Positions 1 through 26,888 of a stretch of 38,196 nt of DNA are shown in pieces (the first letter of the stretch is position 1; each line of letters begins with the position of its first letter). Origin of the DNA: a virus. Its lineage: Duplodnaviria; Heunggongvirae; Uroviricota; Caudoviricetes. The stretch is taken from the IMG/VR virus record IMGVR_UViG_3300029267_003506; one strand, 5' to 3'. Below the pieces are notes generated by a model, which did not search any database, was not told where the DNA came from, and saw only the letters and a list, made by a program, of their open reading frames with translations. Position numbers and translations under genes: made by a program.

Positions 1-876
1 AGAAACGTTCTTATCCTCACAGTCTTGCTGAAGCCTGGATAACCAATATCGAACATTCCAACTGCCAATAGAGCGTCGAATGTTTTTACTCAATCGACGT
101 TTGAGTCTTGTGCCTTTTGTTATCCCCTTCAACTTCTCAACAACGACCAAAGAAGCATTGTCAGTAACGTCCCTGGCAACCTCATCCATCCGTTGTCTTA
201 ATGCTCTCGCTGCCTTTTGCTGTCCCTTACTCCCATGCCTGCAACGCTTGACTCTCTCAATCCTCTCCCTGATATCTGTTCCTAACCTTTCTCCCGTGGA
301 AAGCGTAGCAAGAGAATTTATCCCTGTATCAATTCCGACACACTTGTTGATCGCTTGCTTCAACCCTGTTTCAATTTCAAAACAGAATTGGACACACCTA
401 TCAGTGATGACGTAGCTGTTCAGGCGCACTCCTCGTTGAGATAAGCGATTGAATTGATCATGAAAACGAATAGGCAAATCTAATGAAATCTTTTCACCAA
501 TAGAAGCTAAGTGCAACCAAGCATCAAACTCTCTTGCGTGTTTTGCTGGCTGTAACTCAGCAATCGTGCTGGAGACAGACATTGATTTGCCTCTGTGTTT
601 CGGCTTTCTTGCTTTCTTACCATCTCTTTCTCTTGAAGCCTTGACCATTCCAATTGCTTCACGCGCTGCTACTTTTCTTAACCTGGCAGATAACCAAGTC
701 GTCGGTGAATTGACAATTGGCTTCAAAAGCTGACAACGTGCAGGACAGGATAACCAGAAAAGATCAATGAAGTGGTTAACGACTTTAGCATACTCACAAA
801 GAATGTTTCTCAGAGTTTCTCTCTTCTGTTCATTGGCAAACTTCAAAGAGCATTTGCTTGATCGCTTAATCTTCAC
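1..876 (-). CDS. tnpB: TnpB RNA-guided endonuclease (IS607 type), 3' end truncated by the window edge
   Basis: Not in the ORF track. Manual translation from GTG at 876 is open to position 1 and gives RuvC-I (CVGIDTGINSLATLS) and RuvC-II (LVVVEKL). It overlaps the tnpA stop. Confidence 0.92.
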   Translation of the reverse strand, partial: MKIKRSSKCSLKFANEQKRETLRNILCEYAKVVNHFIDLFWLSCPARCQLLKPIVNSPTTWLSARLRKVAAREAIGMVKASRERDGKKARKPKHRGKSMSVSSTIAELQPAKHAREFDAWLHLASIGEKISLDLPIRFHDQFNRLSQRGVRLNSYVITDRCVQFCFEIETGLKQAINKCVGIDTGINSLATLSTGERLGTDIRERIERVKRCRHGSKGQQKAARALRQRMDEVARDVTDNASLVVVEKLKGITKGTRLKRRLSKNIRRSIGSWNVRYWLSRLQQDCEDKNVS

Positions 877-1438
877 TTTCTGCTGCCTTTATCGCTCTTT
901 TTGCCCGATTCTTTGCTGACCTTCTACCATAAATTCTTGCACACATAGAAGTGACTACATCTGTGAAATCCTTTAAGAGATCAGAAGTCTCTTCCTCTTC
1001 ATTTATCACGATTATCCTCTTGCCAGCAGCATCAAGTGCTGCCTCAATGTAGTCAACGCCAAAGCGAGACAATCGATCTCGATGCTCAACAATGATAGTC
1101 GAGATAGATTTTGAAGAGAGAATCTTCAAAAGCTTTTTCCTCGATCCGTTAAGTCCAGATCCTATTTCCGTAATCTCCTGCGTAACCCTAAAACCCTTCT
1201 CCGAAGCGTAATCGCGGAGACGATTCATCTGACGCTCAAGATTATCTTTTTGATCACGTGAGGACACTCTTCCGTAAAGTACGACAAAATCACCAGAAGA
1301 TGGTTCTTCCGTAGGGTGTACCAATATGGTGCCTGTTGCGAGTTGTTGTGCTTCACAAGGCAATTTACCACTCTGGAACAGGCGGTGAGCCGTCCGATAA
1401 CTCAAACCATTCTGTTTCGCCCACTCTGAAAGTTTCAT
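866..1438 (-). CDS. tnpA: IS607 transposase TnpA (MerR-like HTH + serine recombinase)
   Basis: N-terminal MKLSEWAKQNGLSYRTAHR HTH, YGRVSS catalytic motif, IVEHRDRLSRFG and C-terminal CARIYGRRS. Confidence 0.95.
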   Translation of the reverse strand: MKLSEWAKQNGLSYRTAHRLFQSGKLPCEAQQLATGTILVHPTEEPSSGDFVVLYGRVSSRDQKDNLERQMNRLRDYASEKGFRVTQEITEIGSGLNGSRKKLLKILSSKSISTIIVEHRDRLSRFGVDYIEAALDAAGKRIIVINEEEETSDLLKDFTDVVTSMCARIYGRRSAKNRAKRAIKAAESED

Positions 1439-5103: not shown

Positions 5104-5182
5104 TGGTAGGGCGAGAGGGAATCGAACCCTGCTGCGGACACGAGTTTATAAGACCCGTCGAATCAACCAGACTTTCCGCCCT
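5104..5182 (-). tRNA. Atypical tRNA-Ile(TAT)
   Basis: CGGGT-CTTATAA-ACTCG anticodon arm, TTCGATT T-loop, acceptor AGGGCGG/TCGCCCT and ACCA. D and variable regions are non-canonical. Confidence 0.7.
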
Positions 5183-6072: not shown

Positions 6073-6185
6073 AGGAAGCCGGCAACCACGTCTTTCCGCT
6101 AGCCAGCAAGCGCTTGCCAACCTGCGGAGTAGCCCCAAGAGCGCTCTTGGACGACCACACGAAGGAATTGAACCTCCAGCTTCCT
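6073..6185 (-). ncRNA. Unassigned structured RNA containing a tRNA T-arm
   Basis: Closing stem AGGAAGC/GCTTCCT, T-arm GGAGG-TTCAATT-CCTTC and two long hairpins. Confidence 0.55.
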
Positions 6186-6195
6186 AAAAACAAAA

Positions 6196-6341
6196 GGCAC
6201 CAAAAAATACAAGGAGTGTCTTTTTACCGGCGCGTTTGCCAATTTCGCCACAAGCCATCCGAGGACGACCCGGTGGGGCTCGAACCCACAAGTCCCGAAG
6301 GACACCGGTTTCTCTGAAGTATCTCCTCGCTGAAGCGTGCC
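6196..6341 (-). ncRNA. Circularly permuted tRNA-Leu-like RNA (YrlA-like topology)
   Basis: Order is anticodon 3' strand, variable arm, T-arm, acceptor closed by a loop, D-arm, anticodon 5' strand. It is enclosed by GGCAC/GTGCC and followed by a U-rich tract. Confidence 0.8.
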
Positions 6342-6355
6342 TTTTCTTTGTTTAT

Positions 6356-6428
6356 TACCCCCAACCGGACTCGAACCGGTGTCTGCAGACTGAGAATCTG
6401 CCATCCTGGGCCACTAGACGATGGGGGC
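6356..6428 (-). tRNA. tRNA-Glu(CTC)
   Basis: GCAGA-TTCTCAG-TCTGC; Glu-type D arm; no encoded CCA. Confidence 0.9.
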
Positions 6429-6752
6429 ATTTCTGCTTTCTTTGCAGCACTCACAATCACAGCGTCTCCAAGTCCCATTATACGACTTGGCCCACCTTAT
6501 GACGTTTACAGCCATTTTACGTCCATATCCAAATTTCTTGCGCAAATGGCGGACAATTTCATCGTCTCCGCGTCTCTTTTTGTGCAGCGCTAAAGCCACC
6601 TTGCCGGCAATCCAGCACGCTCTGTCGTAGTCAACATCGTCCCATTCGTTCGGGGGAGTTGAGCCAGATCTTACGCCGTTGATTTTTGCGCTTTTCCCTC
6701 CACGCGGGCAACGAAAATACGTCCATGGATATCTCTTCCAACTCTTTCCCAT
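6414..6752 (-). CDS. Hypothetical basic protein
   Basis: 112 aa with a GAAAGGAG RBS; the stop falls inside the tRNA-Glu 5' end. Confidence 0.65.
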   Translation of the reverse strand: MGKSWKRYPWTYFRCPRGGKSAKINGVRSGSTPPNEWDDVDYDRACWIAGKVALALHKKRRGDDEIVRHLRKKFGYGRKMAVNVIRWAKSYNGTWRRCDCECCKESRNAPIV

Positions 6753-6821: not shown

Positions 6822-6955
6822 GGACGCCAAAAACCGCGTAGGCTGCTTGTGCTGCCGTGCTGCCACTGCACTATGGGGCCGTCTGATGTAGCCCCAGAGG
6901 GAATCGAACCCCCGTCTGCAGATTGAAAGAAGTAGTCCTATGCTGAAGCGCGTCC
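6822..6955 (-). ncRNA. Circularly permuted tRNA-like RNA with a TTC triplet (YrlA-like topology)
   Basis: CTTTCAA-TCTGC, T-arm, acceptor TGGGGCT/GGCCCCA closed by a 9-nt loop, D-arm GTGC-AGTGGCA-GCAC; enclosed by GGACGC/GCGTCC. Confidence 0.8.
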
Positions 6956-7132: not shown

Positions 7133-7209
7133 TGGCACCCCCGACAGGATTCGAACCTGCAATATCCAGCATGAAAAACTGGCGTCCTAAACCATTAGAC
7201 GACGGGGGC
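7133..7209 (-). tRNA. tRNA-Glu(TTC)
   Basis: CCAGT-TTTTCAT-GCTGG; CCA. Confidence 0.92.
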
Positions 7210-7225
7210 AAAAATCCTTTCATTT

Positions 7226-7313
7226 TGGTGCGAGCGGGGAGATTCGAACTCCCAGTAGGGACAAGCCCAAACAGTCCCTCAAACTGCCGCGTCTGCCGTT
7301 GCGCCACGCTCGC
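7226..7313 (-). tRNA. tRNA-Leu(GAG)
   Basis: GCAGT-TTGAGGG-ACTGT; long variable arm; CCA. Confidence 0.92.
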
Positions 7314-19340: not shown

Positions 19341-19493
19341 CTACCGTCCCTTGACCGTCACCGCAGAAGAGTCACCGATTTTGACGCCAGAGCCCGCCGT
19401 TTGTTTCTTGACGGCGGCTGTCTTGAGAACGCCATCTTTGTCTTTGAAACACTTCTGCTCGGGCTTGCGTTGTTCCTTGCGCTTAATCATCAT
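19341..19493 (-). CDS. Small basic hypothetical protein (50 aa)
   Basis: Manual translation MMIKRKEQRK...VTVKGR*; GGAGG RBS; ATGA overlap with the metacaspase stop. Confidence 0.55.
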   Translation of the reverse strand: MMIKRKEQRKPEQKCFKDKDGVLKTAAVKKQTAGSGVKIGDSSAVTVKGR

Positions 19494-20476
19494 ATTCCTC
19501 CGAAGGGAACAACATCCAACATGTCGTCAGGTCCGCTCAATTGGGGAATCTGGCTATATCTGCCAGCCTTCAAGTCGCCAATGACCTTCTGGTGGATGCT
19601 TATCCAGTCCGCATCTGGCATCTCATCCAACACGCTCGTTAGAGTGGCTGTCAATGCACCTTGGTATTCGCCGTCAATGTAGGCATCTGCGCTCGTTTGG
19701 TCATCCCGACAACCCGAAATCAACATGTGGTTTTGGGGATTGATACGCGTAACATCGTTCGAGCGCACTCCAACTTCCCGCCACCCCACGCGCTTCCTTT
19801 GCAGTGACCGACCATGGCTTCGCAGCATGATATCAACAGGAGGACGCAGATAACGAATTCCAGTTGGGTGGGGATTTCCGAACGTCCCCCTATCAACGGT
19901 GCCACTGTGACAACAATCTGCGACAAAGGTCAGACGCGCGCCTTTCTTGGCTACACGCTTGAAATAGGTAGCCAGGAGGTCATCAGTGAGTGGGTCATCC
20001 CAATCCATGTCATGCGTGCAGAGCAACTCGTCAAGGTGGTCATCTAGTTCATCATTGTTTCTATCACGCGTCTGAGAACCATGCCCAGAAAAATGAAAAA
20101 CGAGATGGTCGCCCGCCTTCGCAACCTGAACGAGCCATTCAAGTCGCTGTATGATGTTAGCCTTGGTCGCGCGAGCATCAGTGAGCACCCGGATGTTATC
20201 AGGGTCGAAATGGTAAAGTTTCGTCAGCCGTTCCCACATGCTTTCCACGTCGTTTACGCACCCACGCAAATCTGCTCCGGGCATCGCGTATTTGTTAATA
20301 CCCACCAACAAGGCGTAGCGATTCTTCTTCATGGGCACTACAGAATCCGCTGGCGTCGAAGGGTTTGTCGATTCATCTGCCACTGGTTTCACGCCTCCAA
20401 ATCCAAGTAGTTTCCTGAAGAAAGCCACAATCGCCCGCACAAAGCCCATAGCCATCTCCTCATCACGCGGAAACAT
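19490..20476 (-). CDS. Caspase-family (C14, metacaspase/orthocaspase) protease
   Basis: YALLVGINKY, LRGCVND, FHFSGHGSQ (catalytic His), ADCCHSG (catalytic Cys) and QIPQL motifs. Confidence 0.93.
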   Translation of the reverse strand: MFPRDEEMAMGFVRAIVAFFRKLLGFGGVKPVADESTNPSTPADSVVPMKKNRYALLVGINKYAMPGADLRGCVNDVESMWERLTKLYHFDPDNIRVLTDARATKANIIQRLEWLVQVAKAGDHLVFHFSGHGSQTRDRNNDELDDHLDELLCTHDMDWDDPLTDDLLATYFKRVAKKGARLTFVADCCHSGTVDRGTFGNPHPTGIRYLRPPVDIMLRSHGRSLQRKRVGWREVGVRSNDVTRINPQNHMLISGCRDDQTSADAYIDGEYQGALTATLTSVLDEMPDADWISIHQKVIGDLKAGRYSQIPQLSGPDDMLDVVPFGGI

Positions 20477-21130: not shown

Positions 21131-21727
21131 TTATGACCTGACCGGTGTAAACTCAGCCTGCAAAATGTGAGAAACACCTGGAAAATGCAACGCGGCAAAA
21201 CGCTCAATCGCAGCCACATCCCCAATGTGCTGAAAGGTCGTCGTGCGTAACTCCACGTCTACTCTGTATTTCTGGGCTGCTCTCACCGTCTCTGTAACGC
21301 GCTGAAGATACATCTCGTCGTCAATTGTCGTTCCTAAAACGTTACTAGCATTAGAGATACACTTCAGGTCCACGCTGAGGGCGTCCAGAATTCCCCGGGA
21401 CGCCACATTTTCGACGACATCAGGCATCATTCCGTTCGTGAAGACCTTAACCCTCAATGCGTGCTTTGTATGAGCCCTTTCGGCGGCGTCTACGAGTTTC
21501 TGACCCCAAAGGGTAGGTTCACCTCCCAGGAAGACCGCTGCTTCGTGCAGCGGCGTTATATGGGCGTCCAGCAACTCAATAGCGGTTCCTTTCGACTCTC
21601 CCTGCGTAATCTCTTCGTAGTTGTAGCACCCCCGGCAAGCAAGATTACAGCCAGAGCAAAAAAGCACGAGAGCCTGATAGTCTTCGTATTCCTGAAAACT
21701 GTCCAAAATCACCTGAACGATTTTCAT
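21131..21727 (-). CDS. nrdG: Anaerobic RNR activating enzyme (radical SAM)
   Basis: CSGCNLACRGCYN CxxxCxxC motif and FLGGEPT; directly downstream of nrdD. Confidence 0.92.
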   Translation of the reverse strand: MKIVQVILDSFQEYEDYQALVLFCSGCNLACRGCYNYEEITQGESKGTAIELLDAHITPLHEAAVFLGGEPTLWGQKLVDAAERAHTKHALRVKVFTNGMMPDVVENVASRGILDALSVDLKCISNASNVLGTTIDDEMYLQRVTETVRAAQKYRVDVELRTTTFQHIGDVAAIERFAALHFPGVSHILQAEFTPVRS

Positions 21728-22320
21728 GCTGATGCCAAGACCTCCTCAAACTTCCCGACTGCTTCAATCGCAATGGGCTCCTCTGGAGCCACGCCGCCAT
21801 TCGAGTAGAAAACCCGATTTGGATATTCGTAGCCACGGCGCACAGGATTCCAACTCCTAACTGGTGTCACGAATCCGACCACCCGCGTGTACTGCTGCTG
21901 GATAGGCTCGCCGCAGACGGGACAAATTTCCTTGCGCCCGATGCTGTAGTGTAATTTCGCGCACTCACTGTAGGCGTAGTTAACCGCGAAATACACAGTA
22001 CCACTATTCTTCGCATGCTCCATGATGCGCTTGAACTGCCGGGCTCCCAAGGGCTTCTCATCGTCCACGTTCATGTGAAGGATGGCACCCCCGCTTGTCA
22101 ACCCGTCAATGCGCCCCTGGATACGAAACCGGTCGTGAATGCTGGCTTCCTCAACCAGCGGAATGTACTGGTTCGAGTAGAGTTCAAATTCCCTCGGATT
22201 GAACCCCATGAGGCGGTCAATCTGAGCCAGCCGCACAGCCATTGACTCGGCTGGAATTTGCTCAATGTTATAGATTGTTTTTTCCTGTTTCCTGTTTGCG
22301 GTCGCTTTGACGAATTTCAC
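21724..22320 (-). CDS. nrdD: Class III RNR, C-terminal polypeptide (glycyl-radical domain)
   Basis: YNIEQIPAES, SGGAILH, Zn-site cysteines and YTRVVGF glycyl-radical loop. Candidate GTG start at 22320 with an AAAGGA RBS. Confidence 0.88.
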   Translation of the reverse strand: MKFVKATANRKQEKTIYNIEQIPAESMAVRLAQIDRLMGFNPREFELYSNQYIPLVEEASIHDRFRIQGRIDGLTSGGAILHMNVDDEKPLGARQFKRIMEHAKNSGTVYFAVNYAYSECAKLHYSIGRKEICPVCGEPIQQQYTRVVGFVTPVRSWNPVRRGYEYPNRVFYSNGGVAPEEPIAIEAVGKFEEVLASA

Positions 22321-23956
22321 AGGTTTTCCTTTCAAATCGAAGCATGCCGGCGTCAAAAATCCTGTAATAGCCGTTTTTCATCATATTCTCGCATTCAGAA
22401 AGACTCGGGTCATAGTCGTCCAGAATATGCGGCAGTTTGTGTTTCTGAAACCTAACCCGGCTTTGAAGTTTCCGGCTCCCTTTCCGGAAGTAGTAGTAGT
22501 TCGGTTGAGTCAGTCCACAATTCTGGAACCCAACCTTCTCGTATCCGCGCCCATCGAACAAGCGCACATCACAGTAACTAACAATCGATCCTTCTACTCT
22601 CTTCAGCAAGCGACTCAAACCACCAATGACCGACAATCCAGCCTTTGAACAAAACCTCAGCAATTCCCAATCAAAATCCTTCCTGTATCTCGCCTTGCCA
22701 AAGACGGCAACAGCAACGATTTCCCCACCGCGAAAAAGACCAAGCGCCAAGGAACCACCGATGCATGATCCTTGGATGTGGTTTTGTTCCAGAAACTCCA
22801 CCTCGTCTCTCCTGGGAACTTCTGCCACCTCACATTGCCTGGCATAAACGGAAACATTCTTACCGACAGCGGAACGAATCAGCGACTTGACACACTCAAA
22901 CCTGTCCGCCATTTCGCTGTCAAAAATCTGAATCAGCCTTATGCCTTTCTCCCGGAAAAACAGGTACTTCTCACGGTGGTATGACTTGTCTTTGAACAGG
23001 TCAGAATGCCAGTACGCCCCATGGTGTTCAATCCCCACGCTGCAGCCCGGGAGAAATACATCAATCTCGTGATATCTCGTCCCGTCGTAGTAAAATCTCC
23101 TGTTCCTCTCGGAGGCAATCCCCAGGTCCGAAACAACCTTCTCTATCTCATCTTCTGCCGCACTCGTGTATTTATGTTCTTGCGATGGACAAAACACCAA
23201 TTGAGCGACACAGCTATCCCCCTCGAACTCCAAACCGCACCGCAAGCATCTGTATTTGAAACCAGCCGTTGCCTCGATAAAAAAGGCTCTATCGAACAAC
23301 GCCTCAATTTGCTTCTGTCTCATCTGAATAAGGAAAAGTTCATACCGACTTCTTCTTGCCGCTTGTCTGAATCTTTCCTTCCAATCCTCCGTCATGGCGT
23401 AATGTTTAACACCACGGCGTTTCAGGTGCGTCTGTCTCTTTTTTTCCTCTATCTCTTCTCTTCTTCCTTTCATCCTTTCCTGAAACTCTTCCGTCTTGAA
23501 ATAGTTGTCAGCACCATACCTTCGGATCATCGCCTGTCTGTGCTTTTCTGTGCCGAACTGATGTTCCTCGCCAGACACCCTGATATTGGCGAGGCTTCTC
23601 TCTCTTGCCTCCTTACTCCTCGTCCTCCACGACTTCGAAATAGCCACCCTTCGCTTTTGTATCGCCTCTTCAGTAGATGTGCCGCTCACAATCTGCTTCG
23701 TTCTTATTCTCCGGTTCTCATCGTCGGACCAGAATTGCCCGGTTGCGCAAGAACAACTGCAAAATCTTCGGTATCCTTTTCCGAAGGAGATAAAGGTCGT
23801 CGGCGCACCGCAGGCTTGACAGATTCCCTCTCCCTGTTTCCGAAGACGCTGGTCGTAGTAGTCCACCGGGTCACAGTCGGGATGTTTTTGGCACAGGTGT
23901 TTCCTAACCCCGTCCTTGTTCTTGAATCCCGTTTTTCCACATATCTCGCACTTCAT
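22268..23956 (-). CDS. Free-standing Hef-like homing endonuclease (Zn fingers + PD-(D/E)XK-like + GNAT-like)
   Basis: CEICG...HLCQKH, EIDVFLPGCSVGIEHHGAYWHS...GIRLIQIF, ELLRFCS...GGLSRLL; sits between the two nrdD halves. Confidence 0.8.
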   Translation of the reverse strand: MKCEICGKTGFKNKDGVRKHLCQKHPDCDPVDYYDQRLRKQGEGICQACGAPTTFISFGKGYRRFCSCSCATGQFWSDDENRRIRTKQIVSGTSTEEAIQKRRVAISKSWRTRSKEARERSLANIRVSGEEHQFGTEKHRQAMIRRYGADNYFKTEEFQERMKGRREEIEEKKRQTHLKRRGVKHYAMTEDWKERFRQAARRSRYELFLIQMRQKQIEALFDRAFFIEATAGFKYRCLRCGLEFEGDSCVAQLVFCPSQEHKYTSAAEDEIEKVVSDLGIASERNRRFYYDGTRYHEIDVFLPGCSVGIEHHGAYWHSDLFKDKSYHREKYLFFREKGIRLIQIFDSEMADRFECVKSLIRSAVGKNVSVYARQCEVAEVPRRDEVEFLEQNHIQGSCIGGSLALGLFRGGEIVAVAVFGKARYRKDFDWELLRFCSKAGLSVIGGLSRLLKRVEGSIVSYCDVRLFDGRGYEKVGFQNCGLTQPNYYYFRKGSRKLQSRVRFQKHKLPHILDDYDPSLSECENMMKNGYYRIFDAGMLRFERKTCEIRQSDRKQETGKNNL

Positions 23957-24002
23957 GTGGCTTCCCCACCTACCTCGGTTTTCCACGGCAACACAAGGAA
24001 CC

Positions 24003-26888
24003 TCAAGCGATTCCCAAGAGGTAACTGTCCTGATTCTCCATGTACTCAGAAGCCGTCACCTTGGACACCCTGCCATTGGATACGTGTTTCACCGTCAACT
24101 CGTCGCTTGGCTCGAAATGCAGTACTTCCCCATCGTCAGTCACAATGCGTATGCGACCTTCTCTCCTTTCGTGTTTCTGCCACTCTGCGATGTGACGTTC
24201 GACGGTCTGGAGCACATTGGCAAGCGCTTGGATACCCTCCTCGCTTTTGATGTCGAGTCCTTTGTTCACCACATACTCGTAACCGCCTACAAAACCAATC
24301 GTGCTGTATTGGCGACGCAGGTCAATCCAGCCTGTCGTGTAGAGTGGCAAGTGACCCGTCTCAATGCGGTGTTGGATAAGTCGTCGATGGGAAACCAAAA
24401 TCTTGTGGAGAACTGCCAAGTCTTTTTCCAGGATATCCGGATCATCGCGTTCCAAAATGGCAATGCGGGGCAGGTTCAGCCCGGCTACTCTGTGGCTACC
24501 GATTGACAAACCGCCAACCCCGAACGAATTTTGGTACCCGTCGCTCGCTACCTTGTCGAACTCGGATTTCAGCCGGCAGCACGAGGAGAATGCATTGGGC
24601 TTTGATTGGAAAATGTTTGCCGTTGCCTTGGCGCAGTTGGCTTCGGCAGCCCAGTCAACAAATTCGGGGTCGATGTACTCCCCGTTTTCGTCAAGAGAAA
24701 TCGCCAAGGTCATAATGGGAAAAGTGAAAATGCCCTCTTCGCAGTTGATTTCCGCGTAATACTCAAAAAAGCGCCGCGATAACACCAAGACGCTATCCAG
24801 GTCCGGTTTGGTGCCATCCGGATAAGCATAGCCCCTAAACAACTCCGCCAAGAAGCCTTTGTCCATTACGCTGAGATTGGTAAAGGCACTTTGATTTCCG
24901 CGAAAAGGAAAGTTGAGAGAGAAAATCAAGTTTTGGAATTGGTTCTTGATCTTCCCCCACGTTTCTTTTCTATCCAGGTGCTTCGCGTAGTCTTCACCCA
25001 TCTCTTTCCGGTAAAACCAATCCAATGCCACAAAGAAATCCGGATAGCTAGCCGCGCCGAGAATCTGGTTGCTGATGTAGGCGGTCGACTGAATGAGAAG
25101 GGCAAAAAACGAGTCACTGCGCTTTGGAGGATTGATAGGCATATTACCGTCAAAAAATGCCATGCCACTAGCCAAGAGATTACGCAAATCAAAGGCAAAG
25201 CAGTTATGTTGCGTCATTCCGCAAGCATAGAAGGTGCCAGACTCCGTTGTGATGTCGTATACAAACCCAAGAACATCCTCACCAGAGGGAGTGACCTTCT
25301 GCGTTCCTGCATCCAATCGAAATGTCTTTGACACTTCATTCGTGCGCTCATTCGTGTCCAGACTGCTGTTGAGCCCGCCCTCTCGCGCAAAAGAGGATAA
25401 CTTCACAGATGCGTCAATCATGTCCTCATTAGGCTGAAATGAAAGTCCGAACAAGAATGTAACCCCACCCTTACCATGTCCCGAACTTGATTCGCCAATC
25501 TCCTCGACACTCTTATGATTGAAGACACCCATTGCCGCCAGCACATCAGACAATTGGTTCACAATTGCGTATGCCGACATACGAAGGTTCACAGACCCCC
25601 GAGTGACAATGCCGTCACTGTCCACCAGTCCCGCGACATATGCGCTGACCGATTCTGCGTCCCAATCCAGCACGTTATTCGGAAGGGACTTGGCATATGA
25701 CGATTCGTAGCCAACACCAAAAACCTTCGCAAGCAGCATCCTGAAATGATTTGAGTTGAAGACGATCTGCCTGTCGTCCCGCGTCCTTACGGCACACTCA
25801 GGGAACAACCTTGTCACCACTTCGTAAATCTTTGTCTCGACGATGTTCTTCTGATAGATGTGGATGTTTCCGCGAAGTTCATCCACTTTGATAGCAACCT
25901 CTTCGCCGGTAAGATTCTTTGAGCCAGAGTAGAACTTGTGCCGCCCTACTGAACCATCTCCAGCGATAAAGCCCATCAAATACGCCATGTCAGCAGGAAC
26001 ATCGACAATAGAACGTAATTGCAGTGTATTCTCGCTTCCCCTGATTGTATCCCCGGCGACCAGGTCCTCCGCATTCTTCTCTGACCCGTCTTCCATGATA
26101 ACCGGATGATCGTCTGTCACGAAAGCCATGTCGCCATTTTTTGTTTGATAAATGACATAGCCACGTTCATTCTGGTGACGAAGTATTCTCTTGAGTACCA
26201 CCCACTCGCCATTTCCATCGAGTACTTCCACACGGTGCCGCTGCAAAACGGATTCTGATGCTTTTCCGCTGAGCACTATTTTCTTCCTGTCGCTGCCCAC
26301 CGCAACACGATGAAAATCCAGTTCCTTGTAAACACTTGTCATGTTGATTGTTTCACGGTCGGGATGGTGTTCGGCAAACTCTTCATACTCTTCAAACAAC
26401 GCCTTCATGGTCAGAAGGCGAGTTGGACCACCATTTACGCGCACTATCACAGGAGTCTGCTGATAGTACGAATACGGCATTGAGTAGTTTACGAGGTCAT
26501 TGACGAAAAGTTCGCCGTTGACTACCTTCTCCAGCGCCTCCTCCGCAGCGTCATGACCATAGAAACGCTTGACCCACTTGAAAAGAAGATAAAGGCTGTT
26601 CAACTTCATTAACGCTTTGTTCGCCTCGTAGTTGTACTGCATGATGTTTTTTTCGGTGACATTCGCATTTCCATCTACGCTCACATCCGCCACACTTACC
26701 GTCGCGCTCTTGAAAAACCGTTTGCTGAACTTAACCAGGTCCATGTGCTCGCCGGCAATGCCCTGAATTGCAAATATCTTGTCGCCGTATTTTTCCTCCA
26801 GTGCTTCCATGATGCCCACAAAGTCGTTCGAAAATGATTGCTTCACGTGCCATCCGCGACGTACCGGCATCCCTTCGCCTCCAGTCAA
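24003..26888 (-). CDS. nrdD: Class III RNR, N-terminal polypeptide with intein
   Basis: FVNDL...PY/CFAFDL, NQILGAASYPD, FPFRGNQSAFTN, FTFPIMT, FSSCCRL and GSHRVAGLNLPR motifs. The true start may be at 26870 or further downstream. Confidence 0.92.
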   Translation of the reverse strand: MTGGEGMPVRRGWHVKQSFSNDFVGIMEALEEKYGDKIFAIQGIAGEHMDLVKFSKRFFKSATVSVADVSVDGNANVTEKNIMQYNYEANKALMKLNSLYLLFKWVKRFYGHDAAEEALEKVVNGELFVNDLVNYSMPYSYYQQTPVIVRVNGGPTRLLTMKALFEEYEEFAEHHPDRETINMTSVYKELDFHRVAVGSDRKKIVLSGKASESVLQRHRVEVLDGNGEWVVLKRILRHQNERGYVIYQTKNGDMAFVTDDHPVIMEDGSEKNAEDLVAGDTIRGSENTLQLRSIVDVPADMAYLMGFIAGDGSVGRHKFYSGSKNLTGEEVAIKVDELRGNIHIYQKNIVETKIYEVVTRLFPECAVRTRDDRQIVFNSNHFRMLLAKVFGVGYESSYAKSLPNNVLDWDAESVSAYVAGLVDSDGIVTRGSVNLRMSAYAIVNQLSDVLAAMGVFNHKSVEEIGESSSGHGKGGVTFLFGLSFQPNEDMIDASVKLSSFAREGGLNSSLDTNERTNEVSKTFRLDAGTQKVTPSGEDVLGFVYDITTESGTFYACGMTQHNCFAFDLRNLLASGMAFFDGNMPINPPKRSDSFFALLIQSTAYISNQILGAASYPDFFVALDWFYRKEMGEDYAKHLDRKETWGKIKNQFQNLIFSLNFPFRGNQSAFTNLSVMDKGFLAELFRGYAYPDGTKPDLDSVLVLSRRFFEYYAEINCEEGIFTFPIMTLAISLDENGEYIDPEFVDWAAEANCAKATANIFQSKPNAFSSCCRLKSEFDKVASDGYQNSFGVGGLSIGSHRVAGLNLPRIAILERDDPDILEKDLAVLHKILVSHRRLIQHRIETGHLPLYTTGWIDLRRQYSTIGFVGGYEYVVNKGLDIKSEEGIQALANVLQTVERHIAEWQKHERREGRIRIVTDDGEVLHFEPSDELTVKHVSNGRVSKVTASEYMENQDSYLLGIA
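25203..26471 (-). mobile_element. LAGLIDADG intein (423 aa) in NrdD
   Basis: Starts at Ser (SYYQQTPVIV), block B TDDH, AYLMGFIAGDG and AYVAGLVDSDG motifs, ends VYDITT...QHN followed by Cys. Confidence 0.92.

Follow-up and report, generated by a model that had tools for sequence, protein, structure and literature searches.

The window, as we call the whole stretch of 38,196 nucleotides analysed here (IMG/VR record IMGVR_UViG_3300029267_003506), is part of a large uncultured phage and carries 16 tRNA genes on its minus strand between positions 1495 and 8406. Within this array lies an RNA that raises the question of why the parts of a tRNA should be held, in permuted order, on a shared structural element. 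A sequence-only reading of the locus had taken this RNA and a second copy nearby to define a family and a candidate undescribed system, in which one conserved handle for protein binding or processing presents different tRNA bodies and anticodons.

Anatomy of two permuted tRNA-like RNAs in a tRNA array

The first RNA (RNA A) is 134 nt long, is encoded on the minus strand at 6822-6955, and consists of a double-stranded handle and a complete, circularly permuted look-alike of tRNA-Glu. The minus strand matches exactly the sequence that had been written out earlier for this interval. The assignment of the whole as a Y-RNA-like molecule with a permuted tRNA-Glu(UUC)-like body draws on the sequence, a sub-threshold match to the Rfam YrlA model, a profile of the 5' half of the handle, ARAGORN, and covariation with relatives in two other viral contigs, a 253-kb IMG/VR phage (G001) and contig L158.

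RNA A is closed by an outer stem of 6 bp, GGACGC (6950-6955) with GCGUCC (6822-6827), and the equivalent stem covaries in ten relatives located beside TROVE genes. The conserved 5' handle strand (6930-6949), delimited by invariant alignment columns, pattern statistics and nhmmer, consists of the loop GCUUCA (6949-6944), the 5' strand GCAUAGG of a second helix (S2), a bulged A and the sequence CUACUU. The 3' handle strand (6822-6848), assigned from the sequence, the family 3' motif ...U(U/A)UUG-G plus stem, and a weak nhmmer match at 6823-6842, supplies AAGCAG, the S2 strand CCUACGC, the loop GGUUUUUG and the 3' strand of the outer stem. The 5' loop thus faces GGUUUUUG (6835-6828) across an internal loop; S2 has seven positions, with one A.C mismatch; and beyond the bulged A, CUACUU forms a short helix with AAGCAG. 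Both inner helices had been anticipated in shorter form: S2 exists as drawn and also takes in the G of CAG, and the 3-bp CTT/AAG helix is present, only as part of the longer CUACUU/AAGCAG helix.

The tRNA parts follow in the order anticodon-loop strand, 3' strand of the anticodon stem, variable loop, T arm, acceptor stem, D arm and 5' strand of the anticodon stem. The anticodon-loop-like strand is the 7-nt CUUUCAA (6923-6929; C32 U33 UUC A37 A38), which is not closed into a loop; its assignment rests on the sequence, the anticodon UUC called by ARAGORN and an identical strand in the G001 orthologue. The anticodon stem pairs (U)CUGC with GCAG(C), giving 4 bp plus a U.C, and the variable loop has 4 nt. 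The T arm (GGGGG-UUCGAUU-CCCUC, 6897-6913) and the acceptor-like stem (UGGGGCU with GGCCCCA, 7 bp, 6874-6896) were each supported by the sequence, RNAfold and the YrlA model match. The acceptor-like stem is closed by the 9-nt loop ACAUCAGAC, and a free CCA end is absent. The D arm (GUGC-AGUGGCA-GCAC, 6857-6871) aligns to the D arm of the YrlA model. RNAfold alone recovered the outer stem, S2, the T arm and the acceptor stem, with a weak z-score (-0.97).

The paralogue, RNA B (6194-6343, minus strand), combines the same handle with a permuted tRNA-Leu-like body that has a long variable arm and the strand CAGAGAA in place of CUUUCAA; it was delineated from the sequence, a full-length sub-threshold YrlA match, nhmmer, an orthologue in G001 and ARAGORN. 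The 5' strand reads GGACGC-GCUUCAGC in RNA A and GGCAC-GCUUCAGC in RNA B, and both S2 and the outer stem pair in each. The octamer said to be shared by the two copies, GCTTCAGC, was confirmed at 6942-6949 and 6329-6336. The only two occurrences of the pattern CTTCAG-N8-TACTTC in the window are those of RNAs A and B (6929-6948 and 6316-6335), with 0.00 matches expected from 100 shuffles. When the halves of each body were re-joined in silico, ARAGORN called tRNA-Glu(UUC) for RNA A and tRNA-Leu(GAG) for RNA B, and the tRNAs nearest to the two bodies are Glu and Leu tRNAs of the window phage and of a relative. The RNA region is 100% identical across independent assemblies.

Just upstream in the same array (7133-7313, minus strand) are a canonical tRNA-Glu(UUC) (7133-7209) and a canonical tRNA-Leu(GAG) (7226-7313), whose anticodons are those of the strands in RNAs A and B. 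Because no promoter-like site was found near either RNA, both are probably cut from the transcript of the tRNA array. Several other features of this region were recorded. Directly after RNA B, a third structured RNA (6073-6185, minus strand; MFE -49.2 kcal/mol, z -1.9) is closed by a 10-bp helix, contains two GC-rich hairpins and one that resembles a T arm, and lacks the CUUCAG handle; a handle-less, closed tRNA-like RNA occupies a comparable place in G001 (~107,259-107,333). Between RNA A and a tRNA-Glu(CUC), an ORF at 6414-6752 (minus strand) encodes a basic, Cys-rich protein of 112 aa, an orphan with no homologue outside the window phage among 5.8 billion proteins. A 391-aa neighbour protein resembles a tail fibre and not Ro60; its relatives proved too distant to be informative. 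The array also includes a tRNA-Ile with anticodon UAU (5104-5182, minus strand). Elsewhere in the window, the anaerobic ribonucleotide reductase NrdD is encoded in two pieces (21724-26888, minus strand), an N-terminal piece with a LAGLIDADG insert (24003-26888) and a C-terminal piece (21724-22356), with a 572-aa HNH/homing-endonuclease gene (22268-23986) between them and a radical-SAM activase at 21131-21727.

The handle family and its linkage to TROVE/Ro60 genes

Pattern scans identified the handle in a metagenomic tRNA array (contig L108) and in the 253-kb phage G001. The latter encodes both Ro60 and RtcB, and a 63-nt RNA that consists of the handle only lies at 68,021-68,083, about 430 nt upstream of the start of its TROVE/Ro60 gene. 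This gene encodes a true Ro60, in which PF05731 (84.9 bits) is combined with the Ro60 vWA domain, and its relatives are annotated as 60 kDa SS-A/Ro. We assembled 19 TROVE loci, comprising that of G001 and 18 further loci from closer and more distant homologues of its Ro60. In 15 of these 19 the handle motif precedes the TROVE/Ro60 gene by no more than about 5 kb, is encoded on its strand and is often present in multiple copies. The pattern T[TC]CAG-N7-9-TACTTC gave 31 matches in the 221 kb of these loci, with at least one match in 16 of the 19, and 29 of the 31 precede the TROVE gene on its own strand; the control, 804 kb of unrelated loci, gave three. The reverse search, with a strict pattern describing the RNA only, returned six IMG/VR contigs. 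In five of these the RNA has an adjacent TROVE gene; the remaining contig is a 30-kb fragment of a tRNA array. The position beside TROVE/Ro60 genes fits the earlier guess that the handle is a protein-binding element, and would make Ro60 the candidate partner.

From these loci, the family can be defined by a closing stem, a 5' strand (N)CUUCAG-N8-UACUUC, a 3' strand ...UWUUG-G plus stem, and a covarying second helix. RNAs A and B both conform to this definition of the TROVE-linked CUUCAG/UACUUC handle. Across an alignment of ten TROVE-adjacent, handle-only RNAs, C-U-(U)-C-A-G, U-A-C-U-U-C and one G of the second helix are invariant. Pairing is kept in 92.6% of cells of the closing stem and second helix, with compensatory change at 12 of 15 pairs. 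The covariation score of the handle was 0.892, compared with 0.31 for shuffles and about 0.15 when the partners were slid against each other. A covariance model of the handle-only RNAs gave no significant full-length match in the window (13.7 bits, E 0.13, RNA B only). Since this model could not span the tRNA insert, profile HMMs of each half of the handle were used instead. The 5'-handle profile, built from the TROVE-adjacent RNAs only and with the window RNAs left out, detected RNA B (nhmmer, E 2.8e-5) and RNA A (E 6.6e-4, 6929-6954) and nothing else in the window below E = 1; the 3'-half profile alone was not significant there.

The handle is present, with other bodies, in at least 17 other viral contigs (L108, G001, L142, L143, L147-L156, L158, L162 and L171), and at least eight copies occur in G001. 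Had the handle been confined to the two copies in the window, the sequence-only reading would have lost its central claim; RNAs in which it carries other tRNA bodies were instead found elsewhere. The inserts comprise bare hairpins, permuted tRNAs with an opened anticodon loop (RNAs A and B, their G001 orthologues and an RNA in L158), bodies with an intact anticodon hairpin (CUCAA-CUGUUAA-UUGAG, anticodon GUU, in L108; CUUUU-CUCAUAC-AAAAG, anticodon CAU, in G001 at 106,985) and modules with D, anticodon and T parts in normal order (L142 at 8552, L143 at 2089). The tRNA identities so far are thus of Glu, Leu, Asn(GUU) and Met(CAU) type. That the handle serves as a modular platform for different tRNA bodies and anticodons is borne out by these Glu, Leu, Asn(GUU) and Met(CAU) modules, together with members that carry normal-order parts or no tRNA part.

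Other searches mark the limits of the family. A first generic pattern (GCTTCAGC..GGTTCGA..TTTTTG) gave 30 matches in IMG/VR, all coding or chance, and the exact 42-mer of RNA A was not found in IMG/VR. In a metagenome scan, L108 was the only real case among the 81 matches listed, and the window's own contigs were not among the matches listed. In 185,579 species genomes the strict pattern gave no clear cellular member of the family, but a single doubtful match without TROVE.

Further features were recorded in contigs that carry the handle. In L142 (8700-9000), L143 (2240-2420) and G001 (68,100-68,320), a basic ORF of about 33 codons (...ASNEAKVTKK...) followed by a tRNA with a CAU anticodon lies between the handle RNAs and the Ro60 gene. 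Phage tmRNA genes (58-129 bits) are located just upstream of the handle RNAs and Ro60 in L147, L148, L149, L150, L152, L153, L156 and L158, and the recurring order upstream of TROVE is tmRNA, Y-like RNAs, tRNA and Ro60. Twister-P5 ribozyme matches were seen in L147 and L150. Within the L108 array (1510-1616, 1700-1795 and 2157-2256), ARAGORN gives one tRNA with a 4-base anticodon (ttaa) and misses tRNA-like genes that we read by eye, one Phe(GAA)-like with a D-loop insert and one Tyr(GUA)-like.

The window phage is syntenic with G001 over tens of kilobases, and orthologues of both RNAs are present in the G001 tRNA array. The orthologue of RNA A (124,279-124,433) has an identical CUUUCAA strand and different stems, and the two, together with the L158 relative, show compensatory change in 13 pairs. 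The orthologue of RNA B (125,397-125,548) is 84% identical, and its outer and acceptor stems differ from those of RNA B by compensatory changes; its anticodon, read from the stem, is UAA, again Leu. The two phages also share a caspase-family (Peptidase_C14) gene, located in the window at 19490-20476 on the minus strand (52% identity).

No ORF in the window matched TROVE, DUF2828 or RtcB, and neither TROVE nor RtcB was found by tblastn and Pfam searches in about 96 kb of the window phage, covered by the window and five walking steps along its public contigs, as far as about window coordinate 96,000. The genome is incomplete, as the contigs end at an insertion element beside the array, and so the Ro60 partner may be encoded in a part of the genome beyond these contigs or be supplied by the host. 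At the start of the window (1-1438, minus strand) are a resolvase-type gene and an OrfB_IS605-type transposase gene; several public contigs of the phage end here, and the IS element may break assemblies.

Comparison with YrlA and other Ro60-associated RNAs

The combination of a handle linked to Ro60 and a permuted tRNA domain closely recalls YrlA (Rfam RF02553), a Y RNA that partners Ro60/Rsr in bacteria and phages (Chen et al. 2014, PMC4201824; Wang et al. 2018, 10.1101/312249). In YrlA, a closing stem is combined with a YUAY sequence, with GNCGAAN0-1G near the 5' end as the proposed site of Ro60 contact, and with a tRNA-like domain whose acceptor stem is closed by a loop (PMC4201824); an anticodon loop is lacking (10.1101/312249). 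Y RNAs adjoin Ro60 in bacteria and phages, and YrlA mimics a permuted tRNA (PMC4201824; 10.1101/312249). Bacterial Y RNAs serve to tether Ro60 to PNPase or to gate the Ro60 cavity, and the genes rsr-yrlBA and rtcBA share an operon that is induced by damaged tRNAs (PMC4201824; 10.1101/312249; PMC7790460).

At gathering threshold, a scan of the window with Rfam left RNAs A and B unmatched by any family. The best sub-threshold match for both is YrlA, with 26.9 bits for RNA A and 18.9 bits for RNA B against a threshold of 69. Placement of both copies in an existing Rfam family would have refuted the sequence-only reading, and this outcome was not seen. The match covers the T arm, the closed acceptor stem, the D arm and the flanking stem; for RNA A it is confined to 6849-6921 (model positions 23-88 only), and for RNA B it is full length. 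The YrlA model likewise gave no match at threshold in 12 TROVE loci that carry the CUUCAG/UACUUC handle.

Feature by feature, the likeness is considerable. As in YrlA, the 5' and 3' ends pair as a closing stem, beyond which come an internal loop and a second helix; the distal T arm, loop-closed acceptor-like stem and D arm, all present in RNA A, stand in permuted order; and a YUAY-type tetranucleotide follows the second helix, as CUAC in RNA A and UUAC in most relatives and in the family consensus, RNA B having AUAC with a purine first. Members of the handle family adjoin a TROVE gene (in 15 of the 19 loci, and not in the window phage as sampled), and minimal, YrlB-like partners exist. The differences are equally specific. 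Neither GNCGAAN0-1G nor CGAA occurs in the handle of RNA A or B, which has the family consensus CUUCAG-N8-UACUUC in its place. The RNAs described here retain an anticodon-loop strand cognate to the tRNA body, whereas YrlA has no anticodon loop. They are also found in multiple copies, with different tRNA identities, inside tRNA arrays, and in the window phage no Ro60 gene is nearby.

Other systems resemble the RNAs in part. [quoted passage not shown] In Thermus phage phiLo, Ro60 binds two upstream Y-like RNAs, Yrl1 and Yrl2, which share with the present family a stem-bulge-stem architecture, a contact motif in the internal loop and a location upstream of a phage Ro60; they were identified by a CGAA motif that is absent here, and the available text of that report describes no tRNA-like module for them (PMC12135203). 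The permuted tRNA genes of Cyanidioschyzon merolae, according to the account of Soma et al. 2007 cited in 10.1101/312249, also place the 3' half before the 5' half, join the acceptor ends by a linker and pair the transcript ends beside the anticodon region. There, a bulge-helix-bulge and a splicing endonuclease lead to working tRNAs, whereas here the genome is that of a bacteriophage, the motif is absent and the flanking helix is the conserved, Ro60-linked handle. Inspection of the RNA A junction led us to reject a bulge-helix-bulge, as internal loops, on both strands, flank the helix beside the anticodon strand. A 'CAGCAA-handle' RNA of Felix O1 (AGACC-NNUUA-CAGCAA...GGUCU) neighbours DUF2828, which is Ro60-like and not true TROVE, whereas G001 has TROVE without DUF2828; because its motif differs, it was kept apart from the CUUCAG/UACUUC family.

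Together, the TROVE linkage, the covariation of the handle and the profile match of both window RNAs make it probable that RNAs A and B are Y RNAs of the YrlA/YrlB type and belong to a phage sub-family of YrlA-type RNAs with a different handle. Because this handle adjoins the Ro60 gene in related phages, the RNAs would represent a variant within the established Ro60/Y-RNA system, not a system of a new kind. The claim of an undescribed system therefore does not hold: a closing-stem handle with a loop-closed permuted tRNA domain near Ro60 is the published YrlA/Y-RNA design (PMC4201824; 10.1101/312249), and a phage Ro60 with Y-like RNAs upstream has already been reported (PMC12135203). What is new is the CUUCAG/UACUUC handle sub-family, which is not in Rfam and for which no description was found in the literature searched, the retention of cognate anticodon strands or hairpins, and the multi-copy placement in tRNA arrays, here without a nearby Ro60 gene.

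In this model, the handle, with its closing stem, asymmetric internal loop (5' (N)CUUCA, 3' ...UWUUG), covarying second helix and UACUUC, would most likely dock the ring protein Ro60 (TROVE plus vWA). The predicted docking position is that of the published contact motif, the 5' loop strand next to the closing stem. The tRNA module, in RNA A a complete permuted tRNA-Glu with its acceptor end sealed and its anticodon loop opened, would be the effector end; it most likely engages tRNA-recognising proteins and thereby, as has been suggested in the case of YrlA, tethers or gates Ro60. The RNAs would be excised from the tRNA-array transcript, and the Ro60 partner may come from an unsampled part of the genome or from the host. 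Several observations count against a Y-RNA assignment: the lack of TROVE and RtcB in about 96 kb of the window phage, the absence of the cassette at the syntenic site, the low YrlA score, the absence of GNCGAA and the failure of the handle-only covariance model to give a significant full-length match.

Alternative explanations and possible roles of the tRNA module

Among the alternatives, the one that best survives is a tRNA decoy that acts independently of Ro60, and we regard it as unlikely. Alone or with a protein other than Ro60, RNA A would mimic tRNA-Glu(UUC) and RNA B tRNA-Leu, so as to soak up or sense host anticodon nucleases or other tRNA-directed defence enzymes, and the handle would only stabilise the RNA and keep it from translation. 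The anticodon strands bear on this idea in both directions. They match the tRNA body in RNA A, in RNA B and in the G001 orthologue of RNA B (Leu UAA); CUUUCAA is identical in RNA A and its orthologue despite their different stems; and other members have intact Asn(GUU) and Met(CAU) anticodon hairpins. However, at position 33 RNA B and its orthologue both carry A where U is universal, and the anticodon strand is the most variable part between these two RNAs, which are 84% identical. Placement within a tRNA array beside canonical tRNAs of the same anticodons would suit a decoy, as would the failure to find a TROVE gene in about 96 kb of the phage; simple stabilisation, on the other hand, leaves unexplained why the sequence of the handle is conserved and tightly linked to TROVE across phages, and why members exist that have the handle and no tRNA part.

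It is quite improbable that RNAs A and B are decaying relics, that is, Y-RNA genes without current function left behind when the window phage lost its Ro60 cassette. The G001 cassette lies between homologues of two neighbouring genes and is missing here: the syntenic site in the window phage holds two unrelated genes, and the TROVE cassette, the handle RNA and the tRNA are all absent from it, as expected after such a loss. Every helix of both RNAs is intact, however, with compensatory differences from the orthologues; the handle motif is conserved in full, and the region is 100% identical in independent assemblies; with the genome incomplete, the TROVE gene may also be elsewhere.

Least credible of all is a true permuted pre-tRNA, from which the handle would be removed, the anticodon loop sealed (for example by an RtcB-type ligase) and the acceptor loop opened by RNase P and 3' trimming before CCA addition to yield a working tRNA-Glu(UUC): although no tRNA part is missing and ARAGORN reads the re-joined halves as tRNA-Glu(UUC), although G001 encodes RtcB, and although this possibility was raised for YrlA RNAs by Wang et al. 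2018, who describe a Mycobacterium smegmatis YrlA that, with a 7-bp stem like that of RNA A, undergoes RNase P cleavage and CCA addition (10.1101/312249), the junction lacks a bulge-helix-bulge, no splicing endonuclease is known in bacteria (10.1101/312249), a U.C closes the loop end of the RNA A anticodon stem, RtcB was not found in about 96 kb of the window phage, a canonical tRNA-Glu(UUC) is already in the array, and members with the same handle and no or partial tRNA lie beside Ro60.

Returning to the Y-RNA reading, we note a more speculative extension of it, to which we attach only a small chance of being correct: the Ro60 handle may be a display platform for complete, isoacceptor-specific tRNA copies (Glu UUC, Leu GAG/UAA, Asn GUU, Met CAU) in which the anticodon matters. 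The RNAs might then act as decoys or sensors that bring Ro60 and its partners (RtcB, PNPase) to tRNA-attacking enzymes, or some of them might yield working tRNAs after opening by RNase P and re-sealing; maturation of a permuted tRNA would then, if true, be seen for the first time in a bacterium or phage.

The mimicry published for YrlA looks generic, since YrlA has no anticodon loop. In the phage sub-family, anticodon strands are matched to the body, several tRNA identities occur in one genome, and the RNAs are placed among real tRNAs. Isoacceptor-specific mimicry thereby becomes testable, whether as an anticodon-nuclease decoy, a recruiter of tRNA enzymes or a substrate for tRNA processing. 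In practice, Y RNAs of large phages that escape the Rfam YrlA model can be recognised simply by the CUUCAG/UACUUC handle.
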